Origin: an uncultured Candidatus Saccharibacteria bacterium
Lineage (GTDB): Bacteria; Patescibacteriota; Minisyncoccia; Phycocordibacterales; UBA2100
Assembly: GCA_964512835.1 (NCBI GenBank)
Contig: CAZELA010000003.1
Coordinates: forward strand, 15,516 to 79,515
Direction: 5' to 3'
DNA length: 64,000 nucleotides
Shown here: piece by piece, positions 2,713 through 57,607 of the stretch
How the letters are laid out: each line of letters opens with the position of its first letter
Position numbering within the stretch: the first letter of the stretch is position 1
Made by a program: the position numbers and the translations under genes
Notes under the pieces: generated by a model
Databases searched by the model: none
The model's input: the letters and a program-made list of their open reading frames with translations, nothing else
What the model was told of the DNA's origin: nothing

Positions 2713-2818
2713 ATTTTAGTTTTGACCTTTGTATTACATGTTCCCTATTAAAAGGAGAACACGGAACCGTGCACGTATTCATTCGACGTGAATACCTGCC
2801 CGTTTTTTGCGAACACAC

Positions 2819-2835
2819 TGTCTATTAAATAGACA
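2819..2835. promoter_or_regulatory. Perfect 17-bp palindrome TGTCTATT-A-AATAGACA in the AT-rich region upstream of the surface-protein gene; candidate operator site.
   Basis: Read directly from the sequence. It sits in the ~620-bp AT-rich non-coding region 2713..3332, about 110 bp upstream of the ATG at 2712. Confidence 0.3.
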
Positions 2836-3332
2836 ACGTGTCCACTAATAATTTATTGCTAACCCGAGCTTCTTGTTAATAGTCGACGCGAAGCAACGGG
2901 AGTAGCAGCGAATGGGAATGTGCCGTAACTGAGTTTCTATCCTGTCGGAATAATCTGAGCGGCGTGAATTCATGAGCACTCGTACATACAAGTATTTGTA
3001 TGTTCATGCATCATGAAAACGTGGTGATGCGATCACCGTAACGTTGTTTCAATATGTAAATGTCAAAGATCGACACAGAGGGCTTTCGCTTCCCTGTGCA
3101 ACACATCCAATGGATGCGTCCGCACAATTATATACTGGAAGCACTTTTAGACCCGTCTGAGCAAAACTCCGTTTTGTGGATAACTTGTGAGTAAAAAGGC
3201 CTCATTTCAAGCCCCTTTTGCCCTCGCAAGTTACCGGGGCAGGATACTGCACCGCCACACTGGAGTCAATTAAGGAGACGTGCGTACCGACCATATATTT
3301 CACGCCAAAACAGCGCCGGAATTGCGGGTATT

Positions 3333-4121
3333 TTAAACGACCGAATAGCGGGACCATCGCTTCAGACCGCTCTTTGTGACCTTGCCATCCGCGACCAGGG
3401 TCAGGAGCTCACGCTGGATCATCTTTTCGCTGTATTCGGGCAAATTCGAGCAAATGTCCTTAATACCCATGGAGCCGCTGGATCGAAGAATTTCCAATAT
3501 GCTTTGAGTCCGCACGCTCATTTGTCCGTTATGTGTGACAGTCTTCACCGCCGAAGCAGCGACCTCCCGTGTATCCGTTGCCTCCCCCGCAACACGAACG
3601 TCTTTTATGTCCTTTACTGCATAGGTCGCAGCGCGAGCGGGCAATGTTCCGACATCCAATAGCTCATCCTTTGATATAACGACACTTTCTGAAAAGTTTG
3701 TTCGCTGCGATACATGCATAAAATTGCCAAGCTCATCGAGCGCTTCAACGATGGCGCTCACATTTTGGGTAGAAGCAAATCCGGATATCGCCAGCATCCG
3801 CACCAGTGATATGAGGTGGCGGATCGAAGATACAACAGACACAACTCCACCGGAGTTCGACGAACGCATATCATCTCGGACCGAAAGCACTGACGACAGC
3901 ATCTGCATGGATTCCCTCCGAACCAGCCCGCGCAACGGCTCATCCTGATCAACGTGGTTGGTCAACAAATGGACTGCTGCCGCGATTCGCTCAGCACGAC
4001 GATAGGCTCTATCGGCCGCTCGATTATCACCAAAAGGATTCAAACGGACATTCTGAGAGTCGAAGAATTTTCCGAGATTTTCCGTCTTTTGTATGTCCTT
4101 ATTGTCGTCCATTTTATGCAT
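3333..4121 (-). CDS. Hypothetical protein with a C-terminal winged-helix-like segment
   Basis: 262-aa ORF. The C-terminus 'SILEILRSSGSMGIKDICSNLPEYSEKMIQRELLTLVADGKVTKSGLKRW' looks like an HTH/wHTH domain. I recognise no family for the N-terminal part. Confidence 0.5.
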   Translation of the reverse strand: MHKMDDNKDIQKTENLGKFFDSQNVRLNPFGDNRAADRAYRRAERIAAAVHLLTNHVDQDEPLRGLVRRESMQMLSSVLSVRDDMRSSNSGGVVSVVSSIRHLISLVRMLAISGFASTQNVSAIVEALDELGNFMHVSQRTNFSESVVISKDELLDVGTLPARAATYAVKDIKDVRVAGEATDTREVAASAVKTVTHNGQMSVRTQSILEILRSSGSMGIKDICSNLPEYSEKMIQRELLTLVADGKVTKSGLKRWSRYSVV

Positions 4122-4298
4122 GAATATGTCCTTTATTTATATCGGACATATGTATTGCAGACGGATTATATAAAGGACGACCGAAAACGCAATGTTCTGA
4201 GTAACGGCCGATAATGTCAGTGCGGGAACCGCTAATGAATGGCTCAATGCCTGGGTTTTTTGCCGCTTGTCCGATGTAGCGCGTGCTATGATGTTGCC

Positions 4299-6542
4299 AT
4301 GAAAGACAAGGCAAAAGAGAAGCCGAAGAGGAACACAAGGAAGAAAGATCTCGATTCGTCAGACTCCGCGGGCGTGATTAGCAGCGAGGCGCTTCGCGGT
4401 GTGATCGCTATTTTTCTTTTTGCAGTTTCGGGCTTTCTGTTGCTGGCACTTCTTGGCGTAGGGGGTGCGGTTGGAGCCGCGCTCTATAACGGACTGACAT
4501 GGCTATTGGGCGTCGGGTATCTGCTCTTGCCGCTTTCTATGATCATGCTCGCGGTCTTAATATTCCGCTCGCTTGAACGCAGCGTCTCGTGGGTGCACGT
4601 GATATCGATGGTCATCTTTTTGCTTTCGGGCCTCGGATTAACCGCGCTTGCGTATCCGATGGCGGGCGGCGTTTTGGGTGACGCGATCGCACAACCGATC
4701 GTGGCTGCGGTCGACGTGTTTGCTACGGTCATATTCCTCCTCGCGTTCACCGTTATGGCACTTGTGGTCGCGTTCGATATCAACCTCGGCGAAGTCGTCC
4801 GCTGGTTCAAGAGCCTGGTGAGCCCGTCAGAATTCCCGAACGAGCTTGCGCCGGTTGCACTCGACGATGTACCGGTGACCGGACTTTCCGTCGAACCGGA
4901 CGACCACGATGAGCGCGCACCGGCACCGGAACCTGTCGCAAAAAAGGAGAAAGAGCCGGAAATCAAAAAATTCTCCGACAAGGTATCGGATGATGTCGGC
5001 GGATTCCCGATCACCGCAGCAACCGGTTCAACCTACACACCTCCCCCGGCAACACTCCTTGCCAAGAATAAAGGTAAGCCCGAAGTCGGCGATGTGAAGG
5101 CCAACATGAACATCATCAAGCGCACGCTTCAGAATTTCGGTATCCAAGTAGAAATGGACGAAGCGAACATCGGACCGACCGTCACGCGCTACTCAATGAA
5201 ACCCGCAGAAGGCGTGCGTCTTGCAAAGATTGTGGCCCTGCAGTCGAACCTGGAACTCGCGCTCGCGGCATCCCCTGTTCGTATCGAGGCTCCCATTCCG
5301 GGTAAGTCGCTCGTCGGTATCGAAGTGCCGAACATATCGCGAACAACACTCGGTATGGGCCCGCTCGTATCAGACGACGGATTCACCGGCTCCGAAAAAT
5401 CTCTTTTGATGGCCCTTGGTCGCACCATTACCGGTGCGCCGCAATACGCGGATCTTGCCCGCATGCCCCACCTGCTTGTAGCGGGCACCACCGGCGCCGG
5501 TAAATCCGCCACGATCAACGACATGATCGTATCGCTCTTGTACCGATGCGGACCGGAGCGCCTTCGGTTCATCATGGTTGACCCGAAACGCGTTGAACTC
5601 ACGCTCTACAACCCGATCCCCCACCTGCTTACCCCCGTCATCACCGATGCCAAAAAAGCGATCCTTGCGCTCAAGTGGCTCGGAAAGGAAATGGAACGAC
5701 GCTATAACATCCTTGAAACGGAGCGTGTCCGCGATATCGGCTCATACCACGAGACCGTGCTCAAGCCGGCGCTCGAAAAAGGTCCGCAAGACGGCAAGCC
5801 GATGCCGGAAGCGATGCCCTATATCGTGCTCATCATCGACGAATTGGCCGATATCATGACGTCGTACCCGCGCGAACTCGAGGGCGGCATCGTTCGACTT
5901 GCTCAAATGAGCCGCGCTGTGGGTATTCACCTCATTCTCTCGACTCAGCGACCGTCGGTAAAAGTGATCACCGGCCTCATCAAGGCGAACATCCCCGCCC
6001 GACTGGCGCTCCAAGTGTCATCGCAAATCGATTCGCGCACTATTCTCGACATGGGCGGGGCAGAATCGCTGCTCGGCGCCGGCGATATGCTCTTTTTGTC
6101 GGGTGAAATGTCAAAGCCGAACCGCGTACAGGCGCCGTATATATCGGAGGCCGAAGTAAAAAGCGTGGTGGCATATATCGAAAAGCACAACGAACCGACA
6201 CTTGCTACCAGCATGGACATGGGTGAACACAATATGGGAGGCAAAGACGCCATATTCTCGTCGATGATCGGGGGTGACGGAGACGAGGAAGGCGACGAAC
6301 TGTACCCGGAAGCGAAGAAGACCGTAATAGAGGCCGGCAAGGCATCAACCTCGTACCTGCAGCGCAAGCTCGGTGTGGGCTACGCACGCGCTGCCAAACT
6401 CATGGACCTGTTGGAAGAGCGAGGCGTGATCGGCCCGGCAGACGGCGCGAAGCCTCGCGAGATCATAGGCGCGGGAAATGCCGATGAGCTCGCTGCGGAG
6501 CCGACTGGAGAAGATTACGCGGAAGATCCGCGAGAGAACTAA
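4299..6542 (+). CDS. ftsK: DNA translocase FtsK/SpoIIIE
   Basis: N-terminal multi-TM region, Walker A 'GTTGAGKS', FtsK motor conservation and a C-terminal gamma (wHTH) domain 'TSYLQRKLGVGYARAAKLMDLLEERGVI'. Start moved to MKDKAKEK (ATG 4299); the track start at 4239 is probably upstream read-through. Confidence 0.95.
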   Translation: MKDKAKEKPKRNTRKKDLDSSDSAGVISSEALRGVIAIFLFAVSGFLLLALLGVGGAVGAALYNGLTWLLGVGYLLLPLSMIMLAVLIFRSLERSVSWVHVISMVIFLLSGLGLTALAYPMAGGVLGDAIAQPIVAAVDVFATVIFLLAFTVMALVVAFDINLGEVVRWFKSLVSPSEFPNELAPVALDDVPVTGLSVEPDDHDERAPAPEPVAKKEKEPEIKKFSDKVSDDVGGFPITAATGSTYTPPPATLLAKNKGKPEVGDVKANMNIIKRTLQNFGIQVEMDEANIGPTVTRYSMKPAEGVRLAKIVALQSNLELALAASPVRIEAPIPGKSLVGIEVPNISRTTLGMGPLVSDDGFTGSEKSLLMALGRTITGAPQYADLARMPHLLVAGTTGAGKSATINDMIVSLLYRCGPERLRFIMVDPKRVELTLYNPIPHLLTPVITDAKKAILALKWLGKEMERRYNILETERVRDIGSYHETVLKPALEKGPQDGKPMPEAMPYIVLIIDELADIMTSYPRELEGGIVRLAQMSRAVGIHLILSTQRPSVKVITGLIKANIPARLALQVSSQIDSRTILDMGGAESLLGAGDMLFLSGEMSKPNRVQAPYISEAEVKSVVAYIEKHNEPTLATSMDMGEHNMGGKDAIFSSMIGGDGDEEGDELYPEAKKTVIEAGKASTSYLQRKLGVGYARAAKLMDLLEERGVIGPADGAKPREIIGAGNADELAAEPTGEDYAEDPREN

Positions 6543-6555
6543 CGTACCCGCTCGT

Positions 6556-6975
6556 ATGCTTCCCTACCGCGATGGCCGTCTTACCCGCATCGCTCTCGTC
6601 GTGTTCTTTTTGCTTATCGTGGGATACGCGTACTACGAGGCGCGGGGCGTTTTGTACGGACCGAACATTCAGCTCTCATCCGATATCCAAGAGGTGCACG
6701 ACCCGTTCATTGCAATTCAGGGAAAAGCTGACCGCATAGCGGAGCTATCCATGAACGGACGGCCTATTTCGGTCACGGAAGACGGCGCATTCGATGAGCC
6801 CTACCTGCTCTCTCCGGGATTGAACCGTATTATGCTCGATGCAACCGACCGATACGGCAGAAAGACGCAGCAGATTGTAGAGGTGGTGTACACCCCTGAT
6901 CCCAACGCCCCGACAGGCTCGCTCCGAGCAACATCCACCCCTCCGGAGGCGTCCACAACCCCTGAAACACCGTAA
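6556..6975 (+). CDS. Hypothetical membrane-anchored protein
   Basis: The track ORF 6478..6975 overlaps the ftsK 3' end. The internal Met (MLPYRDGRLTRIALVVFFLLIVGYAYY) begins just after the ftsK stop, followed by a TM anchor. No family recognised. Confidence 0.55.
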   Translation: MLPYRDGRLTRIALVVFFLLIVGYAYYEARGVLYGPNIQLSSDIQEVHDPFIAIQGKADRIAELSMNGRPISVTEDGAFDEPYLLSPGLNRIMLDATDRYGRKTQQIVEVVYTPDPNAPTGSLRATSTPPEASTTPETP

Positions 6976-6999
6976 GGTATACTGAATTTATTACCCGCA

Positions 7000-8488: not shown

Positions 8489-9055
8489 ATGGCAATGCTC
8501 GCATACAACGAAGTCCTCCCGAAAAGGATCATCATTATCGACGACGAACCGTACGAAGTGCTTTCTGCGTGGGTATTCCGCAAGCAGCAGCGCAAGCCGG
8601 TAAATCAGGTAAAGCTCCGAAACCTCAAGTCCGGATCGATGGCGGAACACACGTTCCATGTGTCCGATAAGGTTGAAGAGGCCGACATTGAGAACCGTAC
8701 CGCCATGTTCATTTATGAGCGCAACGGCGAATGGTTCTTTCACGAATCAAAGGACAAGTCGAAGCGCTTTACGCTCACCCAGGAGCGCATCGGAGACGAA
8801 AGCAAATGGCTCAAACCAAATACCGAAGTTGATGTGAAGTGGTTCGACGAGAAGCCGATTCAGGTTACGATACCGATCAAAGTAGAGCTCAAAGTAACCG
8901 AAGCGCCGCCGAACACGCGCGGAAACACCGCACAGGGCGGCAACAAACTTGTGCAGCTTGAAACAGGCGCAGCGATCACAGTCCCGATGTTCGTAGAGAC
9001 CGGTGACATCATCCGCATCAATACACAGACCGGCGAATACGTGGAGCGCGTGTAA
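8489..9055 (+). CDS. efp: Elongation factor P
   Basis: 'MAMLAYNEV...KLRNLKSGSMAEHTF...' EF-P KOW/OB domains. Start moved to the internal ATG at 8489; the track start at 8390 is upstream read-through. Confidence 0.93.
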   Translation: MAMLAYNEVLPKRIIIIDDEPYEVLSAWVFRKQQRKPVNQVKLRNLKSGSMAEHTFHVSDKVEEADIENRTAMFIYERNGEWFFHESKDKSKRFTLTQERIGDESKWLKPNTEVDVKWFDEKPIQVTIPIKVELKVTEAPPNTRGNTAQGGNKLVQLETGAAITVPMFVETGDIIRINTQTGEYVERV

Positions 9056-9074
9056 AACACTCACTATAAACAAC

Positions 9075-9108
9075 ACAAACGGGACCCGATGGGTCCCGTT
9101 TGTGTTTT
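9075..9108. terminator. Terminator after efp (ACAAACGGGACCC-gat-GGGTCCCGTTTGT plus TTTT)
   Basis: Read from the sequence. Confidence 0.7.
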
Positions 9109-9118
9109 AATTGCATCA

Positions 9119-9691
9119 ATGCCCCCGACACCGGTACAGGAGACCTATCAAAAGGGCTCGATATGGCCGACGATCGGCACGATCGTGCTGCTAATTGTGA
9201 TCCTCCTGCTCGGAGCCGCGATGTACATATCATACGGACACAATAAGCAGCTCGCTCACGAAAATTCTGACTTGAAGGTTCAGGTGCAGGCCATAACAGC
9301 GGACAAAGAAGCGCTAACCCTTCAGGTGAACGACCTTGCAAAGAAGCTTGCAGAGATCGAGTGTGACGGCGTGTGGAACGGCACATCGTGTGACCCCTAC
9401 CCCGTGACGATCGAAGCTAAGGCTGCGTCGGGCACATCGCCGTTCGCCGCAAGCTTTACGGTTAAAGCCAAGAGCTCGAGGTACGAAGTAGATTACTCGG
9501 ACGGCTCGGCGGTTTCGCCGCTTTCAGCAGCGACCGGTGACTGCGTACCGAAAGCCGACGGTTTGTGCGAATTCAAACTATCGCACGTATTCAAAAACAC
9601 GACCGAGAACGACGCCACATTTGAGGTAAAAATATCGAAGGGCGGTAAGGCATCGGCTTCGATGGTCGTTACAGTGTCGGGGAAGAAATAA
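9119..9691 (+). CDS. Hypothetical membrane protein with a coiled-coil segment
   Basis: Probable start MPPTPVQ. One TM helix (IGTIVLLIVILLLGAAMYI), then 'ENSDLKVQVQAITADKEALTLQVNDLAKKLAE' coiled coil and a Cys-containing C-terminal domain. A terminator follows. Confidence 0.55.
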   Translation: MPPTPVQETYQKGSIWPTIGTIVLLIVILLLGAAMYISYGHNKQLAHENSDLKVQVQAITADKEALTLQVNDLAKKLAEIECDGVWNGTSCDPYPVTIEAKAASGTSPFAASFTVKAKSSRYEVDYSDGSAVSPLSAATGDCVPKADGLCEFKLSHVFKNTTENDATFEVKISKGGKASASMVVTVSGKK

Positions 9692-28815: not shown

Positions 28816-30495
28816 TTACATCTTTTCGGGCGCCGGGATACCGAGTATCCAAAGACCGTTCGTGAGTGTCCGCCTGACAGCATTCACCACTGCGACTTTA
28901 TGTGCAGCTGCCGGAGTACCGTCGAGAATCTGCTCCTGCGCATACCAACTGTTGTAGGCTGCGGCGAGTTGGGTCAGATACGTCGTTACGATATGCGGCT
29001 CCATAAGCGCCGCAGCCTGTTCGATGACTTCCGGAAAACGATGTACAAGTCGCGTCACCTCTGTCGGCACGACGCTCGGATCAACCGCTATCGCAACACC
29101 CTCGTTTGCAGCACGCTCGACTATCTGGTGAGCTCGCGCGTGGGCATACTGCAGGTACGGACCGGAATCCCCCTCGAGCGAGAGCGCCTGTTCGCGGTCA
29201 AAGATAATATCTTTGTTCGTAGCCTGTTTGAGTATCTGGAATTTAATTGCCGCAACCGCGACGTGCTCTGCAAGTAACTCTTTATTATCGGCGCGGCTTT
29301 CGGTGGCACGCGCGGTCGCCGCGTCTTTAAGATCATTAATGAGCGATTCACCGGTCACAACCGAACCCGTACGCGATGACATCTTCCCTTCCGGTAACCG
29401 CATCATGCCGTGTGCGACGTGCAGCAACTTTGCAGCAACCTCCGGGTACACGACCTCCATGGCCTTTTTGAGGACGCGAAAATACTCTGTTATCTCGTTT
29501 GCGGTGACGATCACAAACATGCGCGAAGTCGGAAACTCATCCTGCTTCAGTTTTTCGAGCCCCAGCTCTTTTGCCTCGTATGTCGGCAACCCTTTGCTAT
29601 TAATAAATACACGCGTATGCAGTCCGTACTCCTCGCCCTTGAATACCCGGGCGCCGTCGGACTCGGGAAAGGCCTCAGGATGCGAAAGTACGATCTCTTT
29701 CCCTATTGGACCTGTCTCACTTTCGAAATAGTAGCGGTCGAATTTCGTTCCGAGGATTGTATACAACTTTTCGAACGCCGCGAGAGAACCCGCACGACCC
29801 GTGTCGTAAAGCTCATTGAGCGCAGCATCACTTCGCTCATACAGTTTTCGATTGATGTCGTCGATCTCCGCCTTGGCAGACTCCGCTTCTTTGTATGCGG
29901 TCGCACCTTCAGCATATGCCCGACCGAATTCGTCAGCGGATTCGGGATGAATGCCAAGCTTGCGTATGCCCCAGATCGCACACGCGACATGTACACCGAG
30001 GTCGCCCTGGTAGTTGGCGCGCGAGACCGATGTGCCCGAAAAGTCGGTAAGTCGCGCGAGCGACTCGCCGATGGTGTTACTCATGAGGTGGCCGATATGG
30101 AACGCTTTAAACGGATTCGGGTCCGTGTATTCAAACAGAATATGTGTGCCGGTCGGGAGGTTGCGTCCCCACCCCTCACCTGCGGCCTCTGCGACGGACG
30201 CAGCTATTTCGGAGGCAGACAGCACAAAATTAATGAACCCCGGGCCTGCAATCTCGATCCTGTCGACGCCGGCAATATCCCCGAGCGATGCGACCAGCTT
30301 TTCCGCAAGCTCCCGCGGCGGTATTCCGGCCTGTTTTGCATAGCGCATCGCCGTGCCGGTTGCGTAATCGCCATGCTCGAGAGCGAGCGGGTATTCAAGC
30401 TTGATATCACTCTCCGACACCTCTATACCCTGTAGGGTAAGCGCCGCTGCAAGCGCAGCGCGAAGTCGGTTCGATACCGCGTCAGGATTCAACAT
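28816..30495 (-). CDS. argS: Arginyl-tRNA synthetase
   Basis: ArgRS N-terminal add-1 domain, catalytic core and DALR anticodon-binding domain ('...MEPHIVTTYLTQLAAAYNSWY'). Start set at MLNPDAV. Confidence 0.95.
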   Translation of the reverse strand: MLNPDAVSNRLRAALAAALTLQGIEVSESDIKLEYPLALEHGDYATGTAMRYAKQAGIPPRELAEKLVASLGDIAGVDRIEIAGPGFINFVLSASEIAASVAEAAGEGWGRNLPTGTHILFEYTDPNPFKAFHIGHLMSNTIGESLARLTDFSGTSVSRANYQGDLGVHVACAIWGIRKLGIHPESADEFGRAYAEGATAYKEAESAKAEIDDINRKLYERSDAALNELYDTGRAGSLAAFEKLYTILGTKFDRYYFESETGPIGKEIVLSHPEAFPESDGARVFKGEEYGLHTRVFINSKGLPTYEAKELGLEKLKQDEFPTSRMFVIVTANEITEYFRVLKKAMEVVYPEVAAKLLHVAHGMMRLPEGKMSSRTGSVVTGESLINDLKDAATARATESRADNKELLAEHVAVAAIKFQILKQATNKDIIFDREQALSLEGDSGPYLQYAHARAHQIVERAANEGVAIAVDPSVVPTEVTRLVHRFPEVIEQAAALMEPHIVTTYLTQLAAAYNSWYAQEQILDGTPAAAHKVAVVNAVRRTLTNGLWILGIPAPEKM

Positions 30496-30509
30496 GCGCA
30501 GATTGTACC

Positions 30510-31145
30510 TTAGCTGGCAGAGATCGCGTCCCAGACACGTTCGTGGATCACCTTCGGCGACTCGCCCGCTTTGCATTCGATGGTTCGCCACGTCCGGTCT
30601 TTTGAGAGCTTGCCGTACACTTCGGCAACCGCTCGCTGGTATTCGGCATCTGATTCGTGTTGATCAAGCTCCCGGCCGGAATCATCCATATGCTCCTTCG
30701 CTAATTTTTGTGACACCTTGAGGTAGATAACAAGATGCGGCTTCGGCAGGCCTGCTTCTCCATACATGAGATTCTGAACGAACGTGATGAATTTCCCGCG
30801 CGCCGCGCCCTCGAGCTTTGCACCATGAAATGCCATCGTTGAAGGAACGTAGCGATCAGCGACCACCATGCCCATTTTGAGCGCCGCCACGAGCGAGTCT
30901 TTTGTCGTCGCAAAATCCAACAGGTACGGGAGGCCGGAGAAATAGGGCGACAAATGGCGAAAGTCTCCGTGTTTGCCGTGGAGTGCGTCCTTGATGAGCT
31001 TACCGATCGGCTTTTCGTAGCGTGGTGAATGTGTCGAGGTCACATGGTGCCCCTGCTTCTTCAGACGATCCGCGAGCATCTTTGCCTGCGTTGCCTTGCC
31101 GGCACCGTCTATCCCCTCAAACACTATAAGAGTGTTCGTTCTCAT
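30510..31145 (-). CDS. tmk: Thymidylate kinase
   Basis: 'IVFEGIDGAGKAT' P-loop and dTMP kinase conservation. Confidence 0.95.
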   Translation of the reverse strand: MRTNTLIVFEGIDGAGKATQAKMLADRLKKQGHHVTSTHSPRYEKPIGKLIKDALHGKHGDFRHLSPYFSGLPYLLDFATTKDSLVAALKMGMVVADRYVPSTMAFHGAKLEGAARGKFITFVQNLMYGEAGLPKPHLVIYLKVSQKLAKEHMDDSGRELDQHESDAEYQRAVAEVYGKLSKDRTWRTIECKAGESPKVIHERVWDAISAS

Positions 31146-31221
31146 GCGGGCAGTATTCCCTTACAACCCTTAAAAAGCAACAGCCCCTCATATGAGGGGC
31201 TGTTGCGGTTTTTTGGTCGGA

Positions 31222-31650
31222 TTACTTGGAATCAACGTCGACTCCCATAGAGCGGGCAGTTCCGGCGATGATCTTCTTTGCGTGATCGAGATCAAGCGCA
31301 TTGAGGTCTTCCATCTTTTCGTTTGCGATATCCTCGAGCTGCTTCTGGGAGAGCTTCGCGATCTTGGTTGAGTGCGGCTTGTCAGAACCCTTCTCCTTGC
31401 CGATCGCCTTCAAGACGAGGCGCGAGGCCGGCGGCTTCTTGATGATGAACGAGAACGTTCGGTCCTTGTATACATTCATGACAACCGGGAGGATCGAGCC
31501 GGCCATAGCTCGGGTCTGGTTGTTGAACTGATTCACGAACTCGCCGATATTCACGCCGGCAGGGCCGAGCGCAGTACCGACAGGCGGAGCAGGCGTCGCA
31601 GCACCGGCTGCGATCTGCAATTTGATGATCTTTGTGATTTCCTTTGCCAT
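31222..31650 (-). CDS. rplK: 50S ribosomal protein L11
   Basis: '[35 protein letters not shown]' canonical L11. Confidence 0.97.
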
Positions 31651-31703
31651 ATCTAGTGACGCGGACTATACCCTTTTTATTTCTATATTTCAAGTTTTAT
31701 GGA

Positions 31704-31740
31704 AAATGCCCCGGACTCGTGTCCGGGGCACTGTTTTGGA
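31704..31740 (-). terminator. Terminator (GCCCCGGAC-acga-GTCCGGGGC plus TTTTCC on the minus strand) between the GC-rich membrane gene and rplK
   Basis: Read from the sequence. Confidence 0.6.
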
Positions 31741-31767
31741 AAGAACGGAACAGGATCGGGGGTGTGC

Positions 31768-32694
31768 TTACTGCGACCCCTCGAACTGCTTGGAGACCCC
31801 GCGACGAGCCCAGGCCCGGAGCGGCGCATCGAGGGCGACATTGAAGATGTCCTCGATGAACTTGCCGAACAGGTAGTTGATCGCGCGGAACGGCCAGTTG
31901 AAGACCCAGGCGACGTAGAGCGTAGTCACGTCGACATGCTCCTGGATGCTCGTGCCGATGCCGGCGTAGTACGTCTCGTGCTTGCGGACGAACTCCGCCC
32001 ACGGGGCGGCGAGTGCCTGGAGACGATAGTTCTTGAGATCGTCGTCGGACTTCGGCAAGGCGTCAGCCTCGGCACGCGCCGCGGCATCGAGCTTGGTCCA
32101 CACGTTGTCGTAGAGCTCGGACCGGCCGTACTTCTTCTTGTCACGCACCGACCTGAGCCAGTCGACGCGGGCATTGTTCCGGCGAACGACGCGCTCCTTG
32201 GCGAGCGCCACGGTCTTCGACTGCGCCGAAAACACGCCGACGATCAGACACGCGATGATGATCGCGCCGAACGCAGCGGCCTTGGCCCAGAATGAGACCA
32301 TGCCGAAGGCTTCGAGCCAGCGGAAGAAGCCGAGGGTGTACAGCATCGCACCGACAAAGGCGCAGATGCCGACGAGGTACGCGGCGACCTGCCAGATGGT
32401 CTCGCGGGTCCTGCCGGTGCGCTCGTCGTCTTCGACGAAGCATTTGCCCAGGCTGACGGCCACGAAGATGCTCGTCACGACGAGCGCGATGACTTCGATA
32501 GCGAACCAGAACCCGGTGGCCGCGAAGACCTTATCGGGACTCGGCGACAACGCGAAGCATGCGACCAGCACGATCGCGAGCCACAGAAATCCTTCCCTCA
32601 CGATCGAGATCGCCGAAACGACCACGAGCATCAAGAGAAAGATCGGAAGCGGAATCCACGCGAGCGGCGCGAGGACAAATTCGAACACCCACAT
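31768..32694 (-). CDS. Hypothetical 6-TM membrane protein with a soluble C-terminal domain; markedly GC-rich
   Basis: 308-aa ORF with ~65% GC codon usage (GCG/GGC/CGC-rich) against ~56% in flanking nusG and rplK. It carries its own terminator. No family recognised. Confidence 0.6.
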   Translation of the reverse strand: MWVFEFVLAPLAWIPLPIFLLMLVVVSAISIVREGFLWLAIVLVACFALSPSPDKVFAATGFWFAIEVIALVVTSIFVAVSLGKCFVEDDERTGRTRETIWQVAAYLVGICAFVGAMLYTLGFFRWLEAFGMVSFWAKAAAFGAIIIACLIVGVFSAQSKTVALAKERVVRRNNARVDWLRSVRDKKKYGRSELYDNVWTKLDAAARAEADALPKSDDDLKNYRLQALAAPWAEFVRKHETYYAGIGTSIQEHVDVTTLYVAWVFNWPFRAINYLFGKFIEDIFNVALDAPLRAWARRGVSKQFEGSQ

Positions 32695-32878
32695 CGTCTT
32701 CTCCTATAATGGAATGATCAGTCACAAACGAGGACCCCGCGAATACGGTGACCCTGCGTGACGGCTTAAAATGGCACGCCAACACGATGCTGTCAACGGA
32801 TACCACGCACCGTTTCTGCACCACATACACAAACGACCGGTCACGTGACCGGTCGTTCGTGTTTTATATACGTTCGGA

Positions 32879-33424
32879 TTATACGCGCTGTACCTGATCC
32901 GCCTCGAGCTCCACCGGAGTCTCTCGACCGAACATCGGGACGAGCACCTTCACCTTTCCGCGCTCTTCGTCGATCTCCCCCACCTTTCCTTCGAGGTCCT
33001 TGAACGGGCCGTCGATAATGACGACTGCGTCACCCTCACCGAGGTCGATCGCGTGTCGGACGACATCGCCGTCTGTTCGCTTGAGGATCTTTTCGACTTC
33101 TGACGGTTCGAGCGGAACTGCCTGGTTGGCGGTGCCGACAAAGCCGGTAACCTGCGGGGTATTTCGCACGACGCTCCAGGCATCGTCCGTGGCCACCATG
33201 TCCACGAGGACATAGCCCGGGAAAATCTTTTCCTTGGTCTCCGTGCGGCGACCGTTCTTGATCTTGATTTTCTTTTCGGTCGGAACAACCACATTAAAGA
33301 TGCGGTCACCCATGCCGAAAGATTCGACGCGCTGTCGGAGGTTTCGCGCAACCGCGTCCTCGTAACCGGAGTACGTGTGTACCGCGTACCACTGTCGCTC
33401 CGTTCCGTATGTCTGTTTTGCCAT
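32879..33424 (-). CDS. nusG: Transcription termination/antitermination factor NusG
   Basis: NGN domain 'WYAVHTYSGYE' and C-terminal KOW motif. Confidence 0.95.
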   Translation of the reverse strand: MAKQTYGTERQWYAVHTYSGYEDAVARNLRQRVESFGMGDRIFNVVVPTEKKIKIKNGRRTETKEKIFPGYVLVDMVATDDAWSVVRNTPQVTGFVGTANQAVPLEPSEVEKILKRTDGDVVRHAIDLGEGDAVVIIDGPFKDLEGKVGEIDEERGKVKVLVPMFGRETPVELEADQVQRV

Positions 33425-33464
33425 GACGAAAATGATTACTGATTAATATAGTGTAAGCCTTGTG

Positions 33465-33743
33465 TTAGTTGTCGCCCGGGAGATCAAGCTTGATCGTGGT
33501 CGATGTTGCGGTCGATGTAGCTGTTGGAGCTGCTTCCTGCTGTACTTCGATGGGAGCGCGCTGCACGCCGGCAAGACGAGCGAGCGTAGAGGTAAAGATG
33601 AAATCAAACAGACCCAAGTAGAGCGCAATGAAAAGCGAGATCGCGATCACGAGCACCGTATACACGATGGTCTGGGTTCGCGTCGGCCACGCAACATGAC
33701 GGAGTTCTGCCTGCGTTTCCTGAAAGTAGCTGAATACGGACAT
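33465..33743 (-). CDS. secE: Preprotein translocase subunit SecE
   Basis: Single C-terminal TM helix 'IVYTVLVIAISLFIALYLGLFDFIF' and position directly upstream of nusG. Confidence 0.8.
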   Translation of the reverse strand: MSVFSYFQETQAELRHVAWPTRTQTIVYTVLVIAISLFIALYLGLFDFIFTSTLARLAGVQRAPIEVQQEAAPTATSTATSTTIKLDLPGDN

Positions 33744-33863
33744 ACGGTTTTTGGCTTAAATAGTGTGCTTTTTAGGCATTTTTAAAACGCCGGGCGGCGT
33801 TTATTGAATAATACCTTTCAGAGACGTGAAGTCAAGGCGACCCTTTCGGGCCGCCTGAACCGT

Positions 33864-34154
33864 CTATTTGACCGTTGTGAGAAATTTCACGAGGGCTTTT
33901 GCCTGAGGATTCTTCGAAATCGCATAGCACATCATGCGCCCCGATTTCTGAGACACAACGATATCCGCGCCGGCGAGGACCGCCAACTGGTGACTTACCG
34001 CCGAGTGGGTCATGTCGAGCTCCCCTGCAATATCCTGCACAGCAAGCTGCTTGTGTCGGGATAGTACGAAGAGAATCGAAGCCCTCGTCGAGCTGGCGGC
34101 AAGTTTTAACAATCGCGCAGCCTGTGCAGCGCGCTTACGTTCTACAGTGCTCAT
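33864..34154 (-). CDS. ArsR/SmtB-family transcriptional regulator
   Basis: 'RASILFVLSRHKQLAVQDIAGELDMTHSAVSHQLAVL' HTH region; 96 aa. Confidence 0.85.
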   Translation of the reverse strand: MSTVERKRAAQAARLLKLAASSTRASILFVLSRHKQLAVQDIAGELDMTHSAVSHQLAVLAGADIVVSQKSGRMMCYAISKNPQAKALVKFLTTVK

Positions 34155-34158
34155 ATGT

Positions 34159-34974
34159 TTATCGGATCTCGTACGTGATGTTCACGTTAGAGGTTATTTT
34201 GTTCTGACCTACAGGAAGTTCAGGTGAAGGTGCGGCTTCTGCCTTTGCAAAGTTCCCCGCATCCATAGCCATCATCGCACCGCGCGCATAATAGGGCTGC
34301 GCGGTATTCTCGCTGAATCCGACGATGCGGACAATCGATACCCCGAGAGACGATGCGAGCTTATCCGCCTTTTCGCGCGCATCCGTGATCGCCTTGTCGC
34401 GAGCATCCGCTTCAAGCTGGTCCTGATCGTCGATGGTAAACGAAAGTCCGGAGACCGATGATGCCCCCTTTGAACCGACACCGGAGAGCAGATCGCCTGC
34501 CTTGTCGGTATCTTTCACTTTAACGGACAGCGTCTGGGTGACCTCGAACCCGACGAGTGTCTGCTTACCCGGCTGACAGTAGCCGGATGTGCACGATCCG
34601 TTTGTGTACTCGTATTGCGGGTTCACATTGTAATCAGCGGTCTGGATGTCCTTGTCCTCTACCCCCTCGCTCTTCAGATACGCGATAATGTCATTATTCT
34701 TCTTCGTTGCCGCAGTCTGTGCGGTCGCAACATCTTTAGCGCGCTCCTGGACTGTTACCGAGAAGGTTGCCGTGTCCGGAACTGCGAATACCTCACCCTC
34801 GCCGGTAATACTGATCGTATTGCTTGCGGAGACGCCGCTGCCCACATACCGCATACTCTTGAACACATACAGAGTCGACGCAATTAAAAACAGCGACAGC
34901 ATGATGAGTGCAAGGCCTCCTGCCATTTTCATCCGGTAAGTCGTTCGTGCGATGTCCTGTTCCGTGGGGTTCAT
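34159..34974 (-). CDS. SIMPL-domain (DUF541, BP26/OMP28-like) protein with an N-terminal membrane anchor
   Basis: 'ISITGEGEVFAVPDTATFSVTV...' start of the SIMPL domain and '...ITSNVNITYEI' end; one TM. Confidence 0.8.
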   Translation of the reverse strand: MNPTEQDIARTTYRMKMAGGLALIMLSLFLIASTLYVFKSMRYVGSGVSASNTISITGEGEVFAVPDTATFSVTVQERAKDVATAQTAATKKNNDIIAYLKSEGVEDKDIQTADYNVNPQYEYTNGSCTSGYCQPGKQTLVGFEVTQTLSVKVKDTDKAGDLLSGVGSKGASSVSGLSFTIDDQDQLEADARDKAITDAREKADKLASSLGVSIVRIVGFSENTAQPYYARGAMMAMDAGNFAKAEAAPSPELPVGQNKITSNVNITYEIR

Positions 34975-39002: not shown

Positions 39003-41498
39003 TTAATAATCGTAGAAGTGGTCGATCTGTATTCCCTTGCGTGCAAGCGCTCGGTACACGTCGGCAAGATCCTGCACGTCAGCCTCGACCGTAACCCGGT
39101 CCTTGAGGACGTCTGTTCCATCGATGACCGATACAATCTCCGTGTCGCGCATGATTTCGCGCACCCGCTCGGGCGGCACTGCACCGACGGCATCTCGATA
39201 CGTGAACGTGATCGAATCGTTCCCGGATATGTCCTCGACGGCGAACCGTGCGTTCAGCCTCTCTTCGTCGAGGACCTCGAGAAGGCGTACGGTGAACGAA
39301 TGATAATGCGGGGCAGAGATGAGTTCGCTATGAACACCGTCTCGAGAAATGATTGCATAGACAACATCGTCCTGTACGCCGAACTTTGCATGGGTTGCTG
39401 CCCGGATGAGTGCCGCGTACACAGCCTTGATCCCATATTCGAGCGTCAGAAATGACTTTCGCTCGACGCGACGGATATTTTGTCCGACGGTGTAATCACG
39501 ATCTGCCTGCACGCGCCACAAGTCTTTCAGGTATCTTGCGTACGGGAAGTCGTACCACGGGTACGGATAAATGAAGTCCGCATACGCGCGTGCGGCATGT
39601 GCGGCAAACTCGTCTTCGGGCACACGGGTGTTCCCCGCCAGCCTTTCCGACAGTCGGCCGAGCGTACTCTCGTATAGATTCTTCACCGCATTCTCCACGC
39701 TGAAACTCCATCCGATGACTTGTAGGACGGTGATGTAATCGTCGTTGTTGTGCGGACTGTCAGCAACGAGAGCGGTTACCGCATTGAACTGCCGCCAATA
39801 CTCACGATTCGACGCGGAGTACGGGAAATGCGACGGCAGAGAATCACTGAGCACCGTGGCATATTCGTCTGCACTGTAGACGATGTACCACTCCGGTAAT
39901 GACAGGTACGCGTTGTCGTACGGACGATAGTACTCCGGCGTTGTGCTCGCGACCGATCGGATGCGCTGCTTGTCTTTGTAGTAGCGAAGTTTTTCCGGAC
40001 TGTAGTATTTATCCCACAACGAGTTGGTGAACTTATCCGTCGGATCGTACGCGTTCTTAATTTCAAAGTACTGCACCGCATTCGGGTACGCGCGATGCAA
40101 CTGATCGTCGGTCGCCCATGGCTGATACGGCAGGTAATATGTTCCTCCGACCGACAGTACCTCGTCGATCATCTGACGCGTCCACTTCCCTACGTGTTGT
40201 CGCGCAGCTTCGTCGGTCCCTTGCTTGTAATACACGACGAACGCAAAACTTTCGGTGCGCGCCCACGCGAGCTTTGCTCCCGGATCAGGCAACGCGTGAC
40301 GGATTGAGACGTTGAGAATGTTCACGTCGTTGTCTACAAAGACTTTTTTCATTTTGGGTACCCACTCGTCGAACCGCTCAACCGGTACGAAATATTCCTG
40401 GAGCACATACGAGCTGCCTCCACGATCCTTCGGCTCAAGCTCGGCAATATCGTAACTCGCCTCGTAATTGCGGGTATGTATCAGATGTTCCGCATAGATA
40501 TACGGCTCGAGTATGTATTCGCGAATAAGGTTCCCGAACGGCCACTCACTCATAACAACCCACGCAACACGCTCTTTCCAGTAATCCTGTTTACGCGGAA
40601 TGAGTCGGCCGGGAACGGTCGGCGGTCGGTCGGTTTTTGACCAGGTGACGACGGACACGTGTTTGAAGGCCGGCGGATACATGTCGCCGTTCTCGAACAG
40701 AACATCGGGGTTTGAGCGGACGTGGTCATTGAAGTACGCGAGATAGTCTTCGGTATTGATCTTGGTCTGTGCTCGTTCGACATTCACGTTGTCGGCAAGC
40801 TTGAGCGTGACGTCCGTAATGACGCCGATCCCTCCCATGCCGCCGATCGCGCTGTAAAAAATATCCGCATGACTGGTGGGTGAAGCCTCGATCACCGATC
40901 CGTCGGCGAGAACTATTTTGAAACTCTTTACACTGAGAATGATCGGCCCGAGACCGATGTAACGCCCGTGCACATTAACCGAAAGCGACCCGCCGACCGT
41001 GAAATTCGAATACGTCTGCATGATCATGATCGATAATCCGTACGGATCGATCGCGTCCTGGATGTCTCGCCACCGGGCGCCCGCCTGTACAGTCACCTCT
41101 TTGCTCGTCGTAGAGATGTTCAGGATCTTGTTGAACTCGCGCATGTCGATTTGCACCGCTCGGGGCGATGCGGTCTCGCCGCCCATGGAGTTTCGTCCGC
41201 CGCCGATGGAGACGTGGTCATGTGTCCTGACCGCCTCGACGATCTCTTCCGTTGTATGCGGCACGATGATCCCCTGTACATGCACCGGGTACAGCTCCGT
41301 TACGTCGGTGACGATATTCTGCTTTGTGTTTTCTGCTTCGCGCGCAAGTTTATCCGGTGTCGGGTCACCATGCACGCTGACTATCAGAAAAAGCAGTGCC
41401 ACGAACGGAAGCGCCAGGAGCACAGAGACCGCGCTGAGTACGCGCGTTCGGGTTATGTGTCGCGATACGGCGTGCAGGTATGAGCGCAGCCGCGTCAT
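39003..41498 (-). CDS. Membrane-anchored FAD-linked oxidoreductase (PCMH-type FAD_binding_4/ALO-like, ~480 aa) fused to a ~340-aa C-terminal domain of unknown function
   Basis: N-terminal TM; 'HVSIGGGRNSMGGETASP...VQAGARWRDIQDAIDPYGLSIMIMQTYSNFTVGGSLSVNVHGR' FAD-binding domain. I recognise no family for the C-terminal half. Confidence 0.8.
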   Translation of the reverse strand: MTRLRSYLHAVSRHITRTRVLSAVSVLLALPFVALLFLIVSVHGDPTPDKLAREAENTKQNIVTDVTELYPVHVQGIIVPHTTEEIVEAVRTHDHVSIGGGRNSMGGETASPRAVQIDMREFNKILNISTTSKEVTVQAGARWRDIQDAIDPYGLSIMIMQTYSNFTVGGSLSVNVHGRYIGLGPIILSVKSFKIVLADGSVIEASPTSHADIFYSAIGGMGGIGVITDVTLKLADNVNVERAQTKINTEDYLAYFNDHVRSNPDVLFENGDMYPPAFKHVSVVTWSKTDRPPTVPGRLIPRKQDYWKERVAWVVMSEWPFGNLIREYILEPYIYAEHLIHTRNYEASYDIAELEPKDRGGSSYVLQEYFVPVERFDEWVPKMKKVFVDNDVNILNVSIRHALPDPGAKLAWARTESFAFVVYYKQGTDEAARQHVGKWTRQMIDEVLSVGGTYYLPYQPWATDDQLHRAYPNAVQYFEIKNAYDPTDKFTNSLWDKYYSPEKLRYYKDKQRIRSVASTTPEYYRPYDNAYLSLPEWYIVYSADEYATVLSDSLPSHFPYSASNREYWRQFNAVTALVADSPHNNDDYITVLQVIGWSFSVENAVKNLYESTLGRLSERLAGNTRVPEDEFAAHAARAYADFIYPYPWYDFPYARYLKDLWRVQADRDYTVGQNIRRVERKSFLTLEYGIKAVYAALIRAATHAKFGVQDDVVYAIISRDGVHSELISAPHYHSFTVRLLEVLDEERLNARFAVEDISGNDSITFTYRDAVGAVPPERVREIMRDTEIVSVIDGTDVLKDRVTVEADVQDLADVYRALARKGIQIDHFYDY

Positions 41499-41499
41499 G

Positions 41500-41901
41500 C
41501 TATTCGTTCGAAAGCGCGATCTTTTTCACGGAGTAATGAAGCGCGATGGCGACCAGTACGGTAATGCCGATGTGCGGACCGTTGAGGAGAATATTTTGGA
41601 CAATTCCCTGCCCGATCAATACTCCGTATACCACCGTGAACAGCGCATCGAGCGCATAGTACCCGCCGATCGTCATGATGTATTTCACCGTCCATCGCGG
41701 CCCGGCGATGAGCGCAATGACGCCCGCGATACCAGAGATGCCGTGCGTTACATCGTCGATGAGCGAGATTTTGAACAGCCCGAACATGAGCCACTCGTGA
41801 GCAACCGACGTGTCTACGAGCACTCCCGGAACGCGTTCGATCAATACGATTCCGATAAAAAGGGCACTGAGGAATGCGGCCACATATTGTGCGATCTTCA
41901 T
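41500..41901 (-). CDS. Small 4-TM membrane protein (GtrA-like size and topology; family uncertain)
   Basis: 133 aa, four hydrophobic helices, immediately downstream of the FAD oxidase gene. Confidence 0.5.
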   Translation of the reverse strand: MKIAQYVAAFLSALFIGIVLIERVPGVLVDTSVAHEWLMFGLFKISLIDDVTHGISGIAGVIALIAGPRWTVKYIMTIGGYYALDALFTVVYGVLIGQGIVQNILLNGPHIGITVLVAIALHYSVKKIALSNE

Positions 41902-41915
41902 ACAAGTATTCTAGC

Positions 41916-46963: not shown

Positions 46964-47086
46964 AACGTCGCGGCACTGTAACATGACACCCCGCGGAGGG
47001 CAAATGCACCCTATCGCGCGCTCCTGTTGCACTCCTCCCCCTCCTCTATTAAGGTGCCCGCGGGACCAAACAGAAGGAGGGCACCC

Positions 47087-47644
47087 ATGACTGAGACTCT
47101 ATTGAAGATCGGCGTCGCCGGTAACCGCGACACATTGAACCGCATCGAATCCTGGCTGACCTCGGCAATGCAGCAGTACCTGCCGCCGAGGCGTTTCACC
47201 ATCTCGAATCACGATCCGTTCCCGCCGGGACAGAGCAACACCGAAATGTCGACGCTGGTGCGTCCACCCAAGGGCCTCGGCGCGATCCAGTCGCTACATC
47301 ATCGCTCGGGCACGATTGCGCGCGTGATGCTCGAGCGCAATCCCGACATCGACGTGATGATCCGGATCGACTCCGGCGGCCTGCAGATGGACATCCCGAA
47401 GCCGAGCAGCGTCTACCACGACAGCCAGTACGGCGTTGTTGCAACGCTCGCGACGCGACTGAAGGGCGCCGGCGCGATCATGCTGTACTCCAGCTTGAGC
47501 TCGCAGGGCTATCTGGGCGGAAGCGGCGTCGGCCATCGCCAGGAGACGGCAATGTCGGAGGTCGCGATGCAGGGAGTGCTCCCCCGCTGGTGGATGGAAC
47601 TCAGTCGCGGCGTCCACCGGGCGAGCACCGCGCTCGCTGCCTGA
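47087..47644 (+). CDS. Hypothetical protein; GC-rich, probably horizontally acquired
   Basis: ATG preceded by a GAAGGAGG RBS. ~66% GC with CTG/GGC/CGC-dominated codon usage, unlike neighbours. No family recognised. Long antisense ORFs on the minus strand here are a GC artefact. Confidence 0.55.
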
Positions 47645-56193: not shown

Positions 56194-57607
56194 ATGAACG
56201 CCCATGTAGGACCACTGACTTCGATCACAACGGCCGGCATCATCACGCTGACCGATAGCTACAAGCCGACGCACTGGCTGCAGACACCGTCGAGAACGAC
56301 GATGATCTATTCGTTCCTGGAAAGCCGCGGCGGCAAGTTCAATGCCGTTACGTTCTTCGGTCTGCAGTACTACCTGATGAAGTACTTCGCGGGAGTGGTG
56401 GTGAACGAACAGTTCATCAAGAAGGCCCGTCGACGTTTCAGGGCTCACTTCGGCAACGACGCGCTGTTCAACGAAGCCGGATGGCTACGACTGATCGAGA
56501 AACACGGCGGCAAGCTGCCGATCCGCATCAAGGCGGCCCGAAGGAACAACTGTTCCGACCGGCAACGTACTGATGACAATCGAGAACACCGACGAGGAAT
56601 TCGCCTGGATCACGAACTACCTCGAGACCTTGCTCTCGATGGTGTGGTACCCGTCGACCGTGGCGACGCAGAGCCGTGAAATGCGTCGGGTACTGCTCAA
56701 GTACCTGGTCATGACCGGCGATCCGTCGCTCATCGACTTCAAACTGCACGACTTCGGTTTCCGCGGTTCGACCTCGGTCGAAAGTGCGGGAATCGGCGGC
56801 GCTGCGCATCTGGTGAACTTTTTGGGCACCGATACGCTCGCCGCACTTGATGTCGCCGAAGACTACTACGACGAAGAAAGCGCCGGATTCTCAATTCCGG
56901 CAGCCGAACACTCCACGATTACCTCGTGGGGTCGCGAGAACGAGGCCGAAGCATTCGAAAACATGCTCACGCAGTTCCCGAGCGGACTCGTTGCCGTGGT
57001 GTCCGACAGCTACAACATCTACGAAGCGTGCAAGAAGATCTGGGGCGAACAGCTTCGGGAGAAAGTGCTCGCTCGTGATGGCGTGCTTGTCGTTCGACCG
57101 GATTCCGGCTACCCGCCGGACACGGTCGTCGTCGTGCTGAACATCCTGGGCGAGAAGTTCGGATACACCATGAACGACAAGGGCTACAAAGTCCTGAATC
57201 CGAAGGTTCGCGTCATCCAGGGTGACGGCATCGACTACGAGATGCTCGACAAGGTGCTGGTCGCGATGAAGATCGCCGGATGGTCGGCGGACAATGTCGC
57301 GTTCGGCTCGGGCGGCGGTCTCCTGCAGAAGGTCAACCGTGACACGCAGAAGTTCGCGATCAAGTGCTCGTATATGGAAGTCGCCGGCGAAGGTCGCGAC
57401 GTGATGAAGGACCCGATCACCGACCCGGGCAAGCGCTCGAAGGCGGGCCGACTCGCGCTCGTGAAGATCGATGGCGAGTTCAAGACCGTCCGCGAGGAAG
57501 AGGCAGCCCGCCTCGGACTCAAGGATGAGCTCGAGACCGTGTTCGAGAACGGCGAGATCCTGGTCAAGCACAGCTTCGCGGACATTCGTGCCCGCGCAGC
57601 AATCTGA
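56194..57607 (+). pseudogene. nadV: Nicotinamide phosphoribosyltransferase (NadV/NAMPT) interrupted by a -1 frameshift near 56535-56545
   Basis: Frame 1 (56194..~56540) encodes the NAMPT N-terminus ('...LPIRIKAA'). Frame 2 from ~56541 continues '(R)PEGTTVPTGNVLMTIENTDEEFAWITNYLETLLSMVWYP...', matching '[23 protein letters not shown]...' of known NAMPT. One missing C in the 'gcggcccg' run explains it. It is either a true pseudogene or an assembly error. Confidence 0.85.

Follow-up and report, generated by a model that had tools for sequence, protein, structure and literature searches.

How did a membrane-protein gene come to stand inside secE-nusG-rplK-rplA, which an earlier note on this DNA called a highly conserved bacterial gene string, and is its presence connected with the missing rplA? 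The question is raised by a stretch of 64 kb from an uncultured bacterium (contig CAZELA010000003.1, positions 15,516 to 79,515; all of it was analyzed and is called the window here), in which a GC-rich open reading frame (ORF) of 308 codons, ORF308, lies between nusG and rplK, and rplK is followed by tmk. We regard as likely an account that combines the insertion of a clade-specific cassette, a re-wired rplK and a lineage-wide loss of ribosomal protein L1. In the course of events that we propose, a single-gene cassette would have entered the short nusG-rplK spacer in the ancestor of one genus-level clade of Kaiserbacteria, composed of a terminator that ends the transcript upstream of it, a candidate promoter, a Shine-Dalgarno (SD) sequence, ORF308 and a second terminator. 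Its source was probably a GC-richer mobile or phage gene pool, and it would thereafter have passed down by vertical inheritance, with moderate purifying selection acting on it. The insertion would have cut rplK off from the secE-nusG transcript, and rplK would now be driven by its own conserved sigma-70-type promoter, with a very short leader that has no SD, and be closed by its own terminator.

The order nusG-ORF-rplK-tmk without rplA had already been read from the DNA in the earlier note, and its coordinates proved exact when compared with the ORF list and the Pfam matches. The genes concerned, in window positions, are the following.

33465-33743, minus strand: secE (Pfam SecE, E = 5e-16)
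32879-33424, minus strand: nusG (Pfam NusG and KOW)
31768-32694, minus strand: ORF308, an orphan membrane-protein gene of 308 codons whose start, stop and length are kept in its orthologues
31222-31650, minus strand: rplK, ribosomal protein L11 (Pfam Ribosomal_L11_N and Ribosomal_L11)
30510-31145, minus strand: tmk, thymidylate kinase (Pfam Thymidylate_kin, E = 8e-25)

While secE is immediately upstream of nusG, with a spacer of 40 nucleotides (nt), the gap between nusG and rplK amounts to 1228 nt (32878 down to 31651) and contains ORF308. Direct adjacency of nusG and rplK is absent from the window, and so is that of rplK and rplA(-rplJL), since tmk occupies the slot held by rplA in most bacteria. 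The best NusG matches, with identities of 86 to 91%, were metagenome-assembled genomes of Candidatus Kaiserbacteria, Paceibacterota and Parcubacteria, and by this similarity we assign the organism to Candidatus Kaiserbacteria, within the Parcubacteria of the Candidate Phyla Radiation (CPR).

To place ORF308 among its relatives, we used 160 related loci fetched from genome and metagenome collections, 150 of which have both nusG and rplK. ORF308 was found on 10 contigs (L001 to L004 and L166 to L171) from NCBI, JGI, ENA and Logan assemblies, in every case in the context (ArsR)-secE-nusG-ORF-rplK-(tmk). These contigs span at least four diverged lineages, with 71 to 80% DNA identity to the window overall and 86 to 87% within nusG. 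No homologue or remnant was detected by tblastn at 1e-4 in the 150 loci with nusG and rplK, where the spacer between the two genes has a median of 59 nt. These include 35 loci with a NusG at least 85% identical to that of the window; their median spacer is 57 nt, and in 13 of them it is 30 nt or less. In the nearest relatives without the gene, rplK begins 6 to 30 nt past the nusG stop codon (for example, TAAATCT-ATG), and both genes must be cotranscribed there. The most parsimonious reading of this pattern is that ORF308 was gained by insertion in the ancestor of one shallow, genus-level clade, because its composition is foreign (see below), its presence is confined to a narrow clade and the nusG-rplK junction at the same site in close relatives is tight and lacks the gene.

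The insertion seems to be old rather than recent, since orthologues with only 78 and 56% amino acid identity share the same slot and the synonymous divergence (dS) between members of the clade is about 1. The NusG protein is 100% identical across all the lineages that carry ORF308, and their nusG genes are 79 to 87% identical at the DNA level (dS of about 0.8 to 1.0). The insertion of foreign DNA put forward in the earlier note is thus upheld by the deviant composition, the narrow clade and the tight junction found elsewhere, but not as a recent event. The nearest species all carry the gene with a similar GC content, a situation that the note had named as evidence against an insertion, but this does not extend to the rest of the family.

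The composition of ORF308 sets it apart from the window. Its GC content is 62.7%, against 55.6% for the whole stretch (z = 3.1), which places it in the top 0.16% of 927-nt windows. The value of about 65% proposed before is reached only in 300-nt windows at the peak within the gene, although its status as a GC-rich outlier stands. The difference is clearer at third codon positions, where the GC content (GC3) is 0.871, compared to a mean of 0.629 (standard deviation, 0.078), the highest of the 67 nonoverlapping ORFs in the window and well over that of the flanking genes (0.62 to 0.72). The orthologues behave in the same way, with GC3 values of 0.76 to 0.81 versus 0.62 to 0.73 for the genes that flank them. 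These values support that ORF308 is compositionally foreign.

If a cassette entered this spacer, rplK would have needed a promoter of its own, and the intergenic regions contain the following candidate signals, for which hairpin z-scores were computed against shuffled sequences.

33835-33808, minus strand: promoter-like TTGACT-16-TATTAT upstream of secE (10/12 consensus positions)
32827-32862, minus strand: hairpin after nusG, followed by a U-rich sequence, candidate intrinsic terminator ending the secE-nusG transcript (-29.3 kcal/mol, z = -7.7)
32768-32796, minus strand: predicted ORF308 promoter TTGACA-17-CATTTT, read from the sequence
32701-32704, minus strand: SD-like GGAG, 6 nt before the ATG of ORF308, kept in all orthologues
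31700-31730, minus strand: putative ORF308 terminator, a hairpin (31707-31730) of the form GCCCCGGAC-ACGA-GTCCGGGGC followed by AUUUUC (-23.7 kcal/mol, z = -6.6)
31651-31736, minus strand: noncoding block of 86 nt with a hairpin, an A/T-rich UP-like stretch, the candidate rplK promoter and an SD-less leader of 14 nt
31693-31665, minus strand: candidate rplK promoter TTGAAA-17-TATAGT (10/12 consensus positions), conserved in orthologous loci
31177-31206, minus strand: hairpin and T-run after rplK (-27.9 kcal/mol, z = -6.8)

The 86-nt block is the most informative of these features. A comparison of the window with L170 shows 7 changes in its 86 positions (92% identity), whereas the fourfold-degenerate sites of rplK in the same pair are only 53% identical. 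The window has a single copy of its promoter core. The same core was found in each of the 8 ORF308-bearing loci that extend this far and in none of the 163 other loci. Because the block is conserved far above the synonymous sites of rplK, the comparison strongly supports a putative independent promoter for this gene, located within 31651-31767 as the earlier note had anticipated. Judged by where it occurs, the promoter block also shows itself to be part of the same clade-specific innovation as ORF308. Together with the 3' hairpin, such a promoter would make rplK monocistronic here. The locus would thus be a clear-cut natural case in which a core ribosomal gene came under a promoter of its own once an accessory cassette had been inserted. 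The stem of the hairpin in this block is unchanged, with no compensatory changes, and the conservation as a whole exceeds what a generic terminator and promoter should require. A search against Rfam at a permissive E-value over 30400-34300 retrieved no leader or riboswitch, the sole match being a subthreshold "rnk leader" on the rplK terminator.

The other signals vary in their degree of conservation. At the position after nusG, each of the orthologous loci has a different hairpin with a T-run. Upstream of ORF308, L166, L004 and L170 share, in the same place, a motif TTGAC(A/G/T), a spacer of 16 to 17 nt and xAxxxT. The SD region takes the forms AAAGGAGAAAGCC-ATG and GGAATGGAGGGAATAG-ATG in orthologues. 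The terminator assigned to ORF308 by the earlier note (at 31704-31740) was recovered as the hairpin listed above, with a stem sequence that L003 and L170 share unchanged. The hairpin at the 3' end of rplK is identical in L170, and L166 has a different one. SD-like motifs precede only 11 of the 62 window ORFs of at least 100 amino acids (aa), compared to a background of about 10%. ORF308 is among the few that have one, and rplK and nusG have none. No ribosomal RNA genes or nearby tRNA genes were found in the window.

The product of ORF308 appears to be an inner-membrane protein. Hydropathy gives five clear transmembrane (TM) segments within residues 1 to 156, followed by a strongly basic juxtamembrane linker, KERVVRRNNARVDWLRSVRDKKKYGR, and then by a region of 150 residues. 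Conservation is strongest in the last 60 residues, which hold a hydrophobic helix, YVAWVFNWPFRAINYLFGKFI; the conserved C-terminal region has the pattern SIQEHVDVT..YVAW.FNWPFR.I.Y..G.FI.D.F. The six TM segments proposed earlier are therefore better described, by hydropathy, as about five plus this hydrophobic, conserved C-terminal helix. By the positive-inside rule, the predicted topology has the N terminus outside and the C terminus inside, in the cytoplasm.

Among 5.8 billion proteins, the family consists of three clusters at 90% identity, and no paralogue of ORF308 was found within the window. Profile searches against Pfam, NCBIfam, PHROGs, PADLOC and PDB gave nothing or only matches with E > 0.08, tblastn against 50,697 phage records gave no match, and scans of IMG/VR with the family alignment and with P0004 (see below) were equally negative. 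The family hidden Markov model (HMM), compared to 1.84 billion representatives, recovered the family itself and one marginal match, P0004 (E = 8.7e-4). This is a 197-aa membrane protein encoded on L085, a 53.7-kb phage-like contig with 31% GC. Like ORF308, P0004 has N-terminal TM helices, a basic linker and a C-terminal motif, W..WPF.A..Y.F....D.F....DA, and hhalign aligned the ORF308 family with its C-terminal module with a probability of 96.7% and 32% identity over 60 residues. It differs in being shorter, with about three TM helices, and in its phage-like, 31%-GC context. The genes of L085 (1-16074) include a fragment of the terminase large subunit, large HNH/homing endonucleases (DUF7487) and a fragment of an intein-containing polymerase, making it likely that L085 is a phage contig; it encodes an ABC transporter operon as well. 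The similarity gives a weak hint that the C-terminal module of ORF308 may circulate in the phage gene pool. ORF308 thus defines a new and very narrowly distributed family of membrane proteins, the sole remote relative of which sits on a phage-like contig. With low confidence, we suggest that it could act as an accessory envelope protein of the inner membrane, for example in phage exclusion or in cell-surface or cell-cell interaction. Envelope proteins restricted to one lineage are candidates for a role in host or phage interaction among the episymbiotic CPR bacteria.

The insertion has to be weighed against other origins of the gene. ORF308 might have arisen inside the lineage, de novo or from native DNA that diverged extremely, with its GC3 reflecting codon or expression bias. 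In accordance with this, no donor or homologue appears in 15 billion proteins, and the surroundings of ORF308 carry no sign of mobility. Neither an integrase, a transposase, a tRNA target nor a prophage context was found near the gene, whose flanks are housekeeping genes, and neither target-site duplications nor terminal inverted repeats flank it beyond chance-level short repeats. In addition, the highly expressed rplK, nusG and ileS also have GC3 values on the high side for the window (0.70 to 0.72). However, this origin would require a 927-nt ORF with five TM segments and its signals to emerge from a spacer of about 10 to 60 nt, with no source DNA, and a GC3 of 0.87 is far above that of even the ribosomal protein genes. 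With so few SDs in this genome, a conserved one is also out of the ordinary, and the C-terminal module has its marginal relative on a phage contig. We consider an origin within the lineage unlikely.

It is also conceivable that ORF308 is ancestral in Kaiserbacteria or Parcubacteria and was repeatedly lost elsewhere. The spacer between nusG and rplK is variable among relatives, ranging from 7 to 2666 nt, and the fast evolution of ORF308 (56% identity beside a NusG that is 100% identical) could hide very old homologues. Yet repeated loss would have left no homologue or remnant detectable by tblastn in any of the 150 loci, including the 35 close ones, and the exhaustive HMM searches find the gene nowhere else. 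In 13 of the 35 close relatives the spacer does not exceed 30 nt, which does not fit a lost gene either, an atypical GC3 would not be expected of an ancestral one, and the rplK promoter block is equally restricted to the clade. These observations make an ancestral ORF308 very unlikely.

That ORF308 is a chance ORF in a GC-rich noncoding insert is scarcely credible. Long ORFs on the opposite strand (31699-32295 and 32138-32761, both on the plus strand) and the lack of family matches might suggest it, but the ratio of nonsynonymous to synonymous substitutions (dN/dS, by the Nei-Gojobori method) in the reading frame is 0.20 to 0.34 against orthologues at a dS of 0.7 to 1.2. Furthermore, the orthologues, of 305 to 309 aa, conserve in all lineages the start, stop, length, hydrophobic periodicity and GGAG motif (6 to 8 nt before the ATG). 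ORF308 is a genuine gene; it evolves fast, under purifying selection of moderate strength.

The absence of rplA turned out to be a separate matter. No L1, L10 or L7/L12 gene was detected in the window by tblastn with Escherichia coli and Bacillus subtilis queries, nor was L1 with three CPR L1 proteins from related loci. Of 125 related loci with enough room (at least 900 nt after rplK), 122 have no L1 gene next to or near rplK. The three that do (L075, titled Magasanikbacteria, L084 and L161) encode a NusG just 59 to 63% identical to that of the window. In the window, the gene after tmk is the following.

28816-30591, minus strand: argS (the identical gene of L001 matches Pfam Arg_tRNA_synt_N, tRNA-synt_1d and DALR_1)

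Beyond it, on the same strand, come a gene for a HAD hydrolase and then ileS. In 21 of the 23 close relatives with enough downstream sequence, argS lies within 3 kb of rplK, often with tmk in between, and rplK-(tmk)-argS is the usual order in Kaiserbacteria. L1 has been reported absent from a whole subgroup of Parcubacteria, "OD1-L1" (Brown et al. 2015, as cited in PMC5220378). The loss of L1 in the group was borne out by a survey of complete CPR genomes, which also described that L1-less lineages are often without the anti-SD motif (bioRxiv 10.1101/2022.01.07.475337). The window resembles these organisms in its parcubacterial lineage, in having no rplA after rplK or anywhere in its 64 kb and in the rarity of SDs, and within those 64 kb nothing contradicts membership in the subgroup. 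By analogy, the absence of rplA is best explained as the ancient, lineage-wide OD1-L1 loss, already known biology and unrelated to the insertion of ORF308. The earlier idea of a local event or a possible misassembly found no support, in view of the 122 similar loci and the L1 loss in the literature. A missing rplA and a broken ribosomal protein cluster are normal in this CPR lineage and are not signs of misassembly or of a recent event.

Nor did the suspicion of a misassembly at the ORF308 junction itself hold. The order nusG-ORF308-rplK is reproduced on the 10 contigs, obtained with different assemblers from different samples, and since these are independent and come from diverged lineages, misassembly is ruled out. 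Across the junction, L002 and L171 are 100 and 99.7% identical to the window, and in the diverged species (L003, L166 to L169, L004 and L170) the divergence is uniform along the contig. An assembly or binning chimera, with rplA in reality beside rplK, might invoke a mosaic contig with its breakpoint at the 3' end of nusG (see below) and several metagenome contigs that end inside nusG, but it is effectively refuted by the order on the 10 contigs, by the rplK-tmk-argS order in 21 of 23 close relatives and by the documented loss of L1.

The mosaic contig is L001, from JGI. Its first 1197 nt are 100% identical to L006:5306-6502, which belongs to a genome about 87% identical to the window, and the rest is almost identical to the window. 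The end of L006 lies exactly 55 nt past the last difference between L001 and the window, inside the ultraconserved 3' end of nusG (window positions ca. 32923 to 32978). L002 and L171 bear out the configuration of the window across this point. L001 is probably an assembly-graph chimera (k = 55) of two co-occurring Kaiserbacteria species, the alternative being a real recombinant. A recent transfer of the cassette between species, as L001 could suggest, was set aside given the 55-nt overlap and an identical segment that runs more than 6 kb past the cassette. We also rejected a hypervariable locus that swaps alleles within one species, as a nusG dS of about 0.8 to 1.0 corresponds to different species with an extremely constrained NusG. 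Separately, L171 (JGI Ga0490020_003571), the sibling with 99.7% identity, stops matching the window above 37504, and L171:1-1650 carries instead SufBD-family and other genes, due to a strain-level rearrangement or indel or to an assembly junction.

Several points weigh against the insertion and re-wiring that we favor. No donor lineage for ORF308 was identified, and the mobility genes, tRNA target or flanking repeats that would betray a transfer are missing. At a dS of about 1, GC3 is still raised, a slow pace for simple amelioration, and a cause intrinsic to the gene could be responsible. The promoters and terminators are predictions from consensus and conservation, and the -10 element of the ORF308 promoter is weak (3/6 matches), below the scan threshold. 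The link to P0004 is marginal, at the limit of detection with its 60 aligned residues. An AlphaFold2 model from the three-sequence alignment was all-helical and too poor for a clue to the fold (predicted local distance difference test [pLDDT] score of 53, predicted template modeling [pTM] score of 0.34) and thus offers no structural clue to function. Finally, the absence of rplA covers the 64 kb of the window rather than a whole genome.

The insertion site itself is not an isolated case. Inserts of at least 340 nt were found between nusG and rplK in 17 of 150 loci (11%) but between secE and nusG in only 2 of 155 (1.3%; Fisher's exact test, P = 2e-4), which hints that the nusG-rplK boundary is prone to insertion in Parcubacteria. 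The interruption of the supposedly conserved string by ORF308 is therefore real, but within the phylum this link is broken fairly often. The inserts include genes of GIY-YIG nucleases of 89 to 93 aa (L015:1592-1861, L023:6606-6875 and L026:5713-5994), cassettes with a reverse transcriptase (L011, L054 and L091), a uracil-DNA glycosylase (UDG; L100), a 23S-IVS four-helix protein (L124), a PD-(D/E)XK protein (L130) and blocks of several genes (L049 and L067). They share with ORF308 the point of insertion, while their cargo is unrelated, diverse and for the most part selfish or accessory, and ORF308 is the sole occupant of its kind.

One of these cassettes could be described in more detail. In L091, a Kaiserbacteria relative, positions 2499-4466, between nusG (1276-1818) and rplK (from 4484), form a diversity-generating retroelement. 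It has a pair of 114-nt repeats (2499-2612 and 2929-3042), and at 17 of their 20 mismatches the second copy has an adenine, which identifies it as the template repeat. A reverse transcriptase (RVT_1) follows at 3399-4466. No such repeat pair was detected at the reverse transcriptase-bearing junctions of L011 and L054. In L067, an AT-rich member of the Parcubacteria, an extra L11-like ORF of 141 aa stands directly after nusG and a second L11 gene comes later (6564-6989 and 8964-9356), with ORFs in between that by eye resemble dCMP deaminase and a ThyX-like protein. This may represent a duplication of rplK around an inserted block of nucleotide metabolism. Other spacers hold only repeats, as in the Kaiserbacteria relatives L017 (6544-6692) and L018 (6544-6709), where short repeats in tandem fill the nusG-rplK spacer; (CGAAGCA)n forms one end, and the opposite end is made of (TTCGAAT)n or (TTAGAAA)n.

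We may speculate, tentatively, that in the L1-less Parcubacteria the nusG-rplK boundary serves as a preferred "safe harbor" for recurrent selfish or accessory cassettes, such as GIY-YIG genes, diversity-generating retroelements and ORF308. ORF308 would then found a new family with a phage-related C-terminal module, and its arrival would have forced the evolution, or the codelivery, of a dedicated and nearly leaderless rplK promoter. This idea ties the site to the loss by rplK of its ancestral partners, namely, rplA and the control of the leader by L1.

Other ORFs of the window also deviate in codon composition. A gene of the NAPRTase family (56573-57607, plus strand) has a GC3 of 0.80, and a 205-aa ORF without Pfam matches, adjoining rplS and doubtful as a gene (47027-47644, plus strand), reaches 0.82. 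At the other extreme, a 136-aa ORF (41495-41905, minus strand) has a GC3 of just 0.34. They may be further foreign genes or not genes at all.

Compared to known systems, the locus retains part of the classical arrangement. In E. coli, secE-nusG and rplKA are distinct transcription units. The window shares with the E. coli type of cluster (secE-nusG/rplKAJL-rpoBC) the order of secE-nusG and then rplK on the same strand, as well as the putative terminator after nusG and the separate candidate promoter of rplK. It differs in having an apparently autonomous cassette of 1.2 kb between nusG and rplK, in an rplK that would be monocistronic and unlinked to rplA, rplJ, rplL and rpoB, and in an rplK leader that spans just about 14 nt between the -10 element and the ATG, which leaves no room for an L1-binding leader. 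The cassette itself recalls phage "morons" and single-gene genomic islets, which are autonomous promoter-gene-terminator cassettes of deviant composition. As in these, there is a single ORF with a candidate promoter, an SD and a putative terminator, a GC3 above that of the flanks and a patchy distribution. Unlike them, ORF308 sits in a core housekeeping cluster with no phage or mobility genes nearby, and it is old and vertically inherited within its clade. In this sense, ORF308 represents an event of an ordinary type, an accessory gene islet specific to its lineage, in an unusual and well-documented place and accompanied by a conserved, putatively compensatory promoter for rplK.

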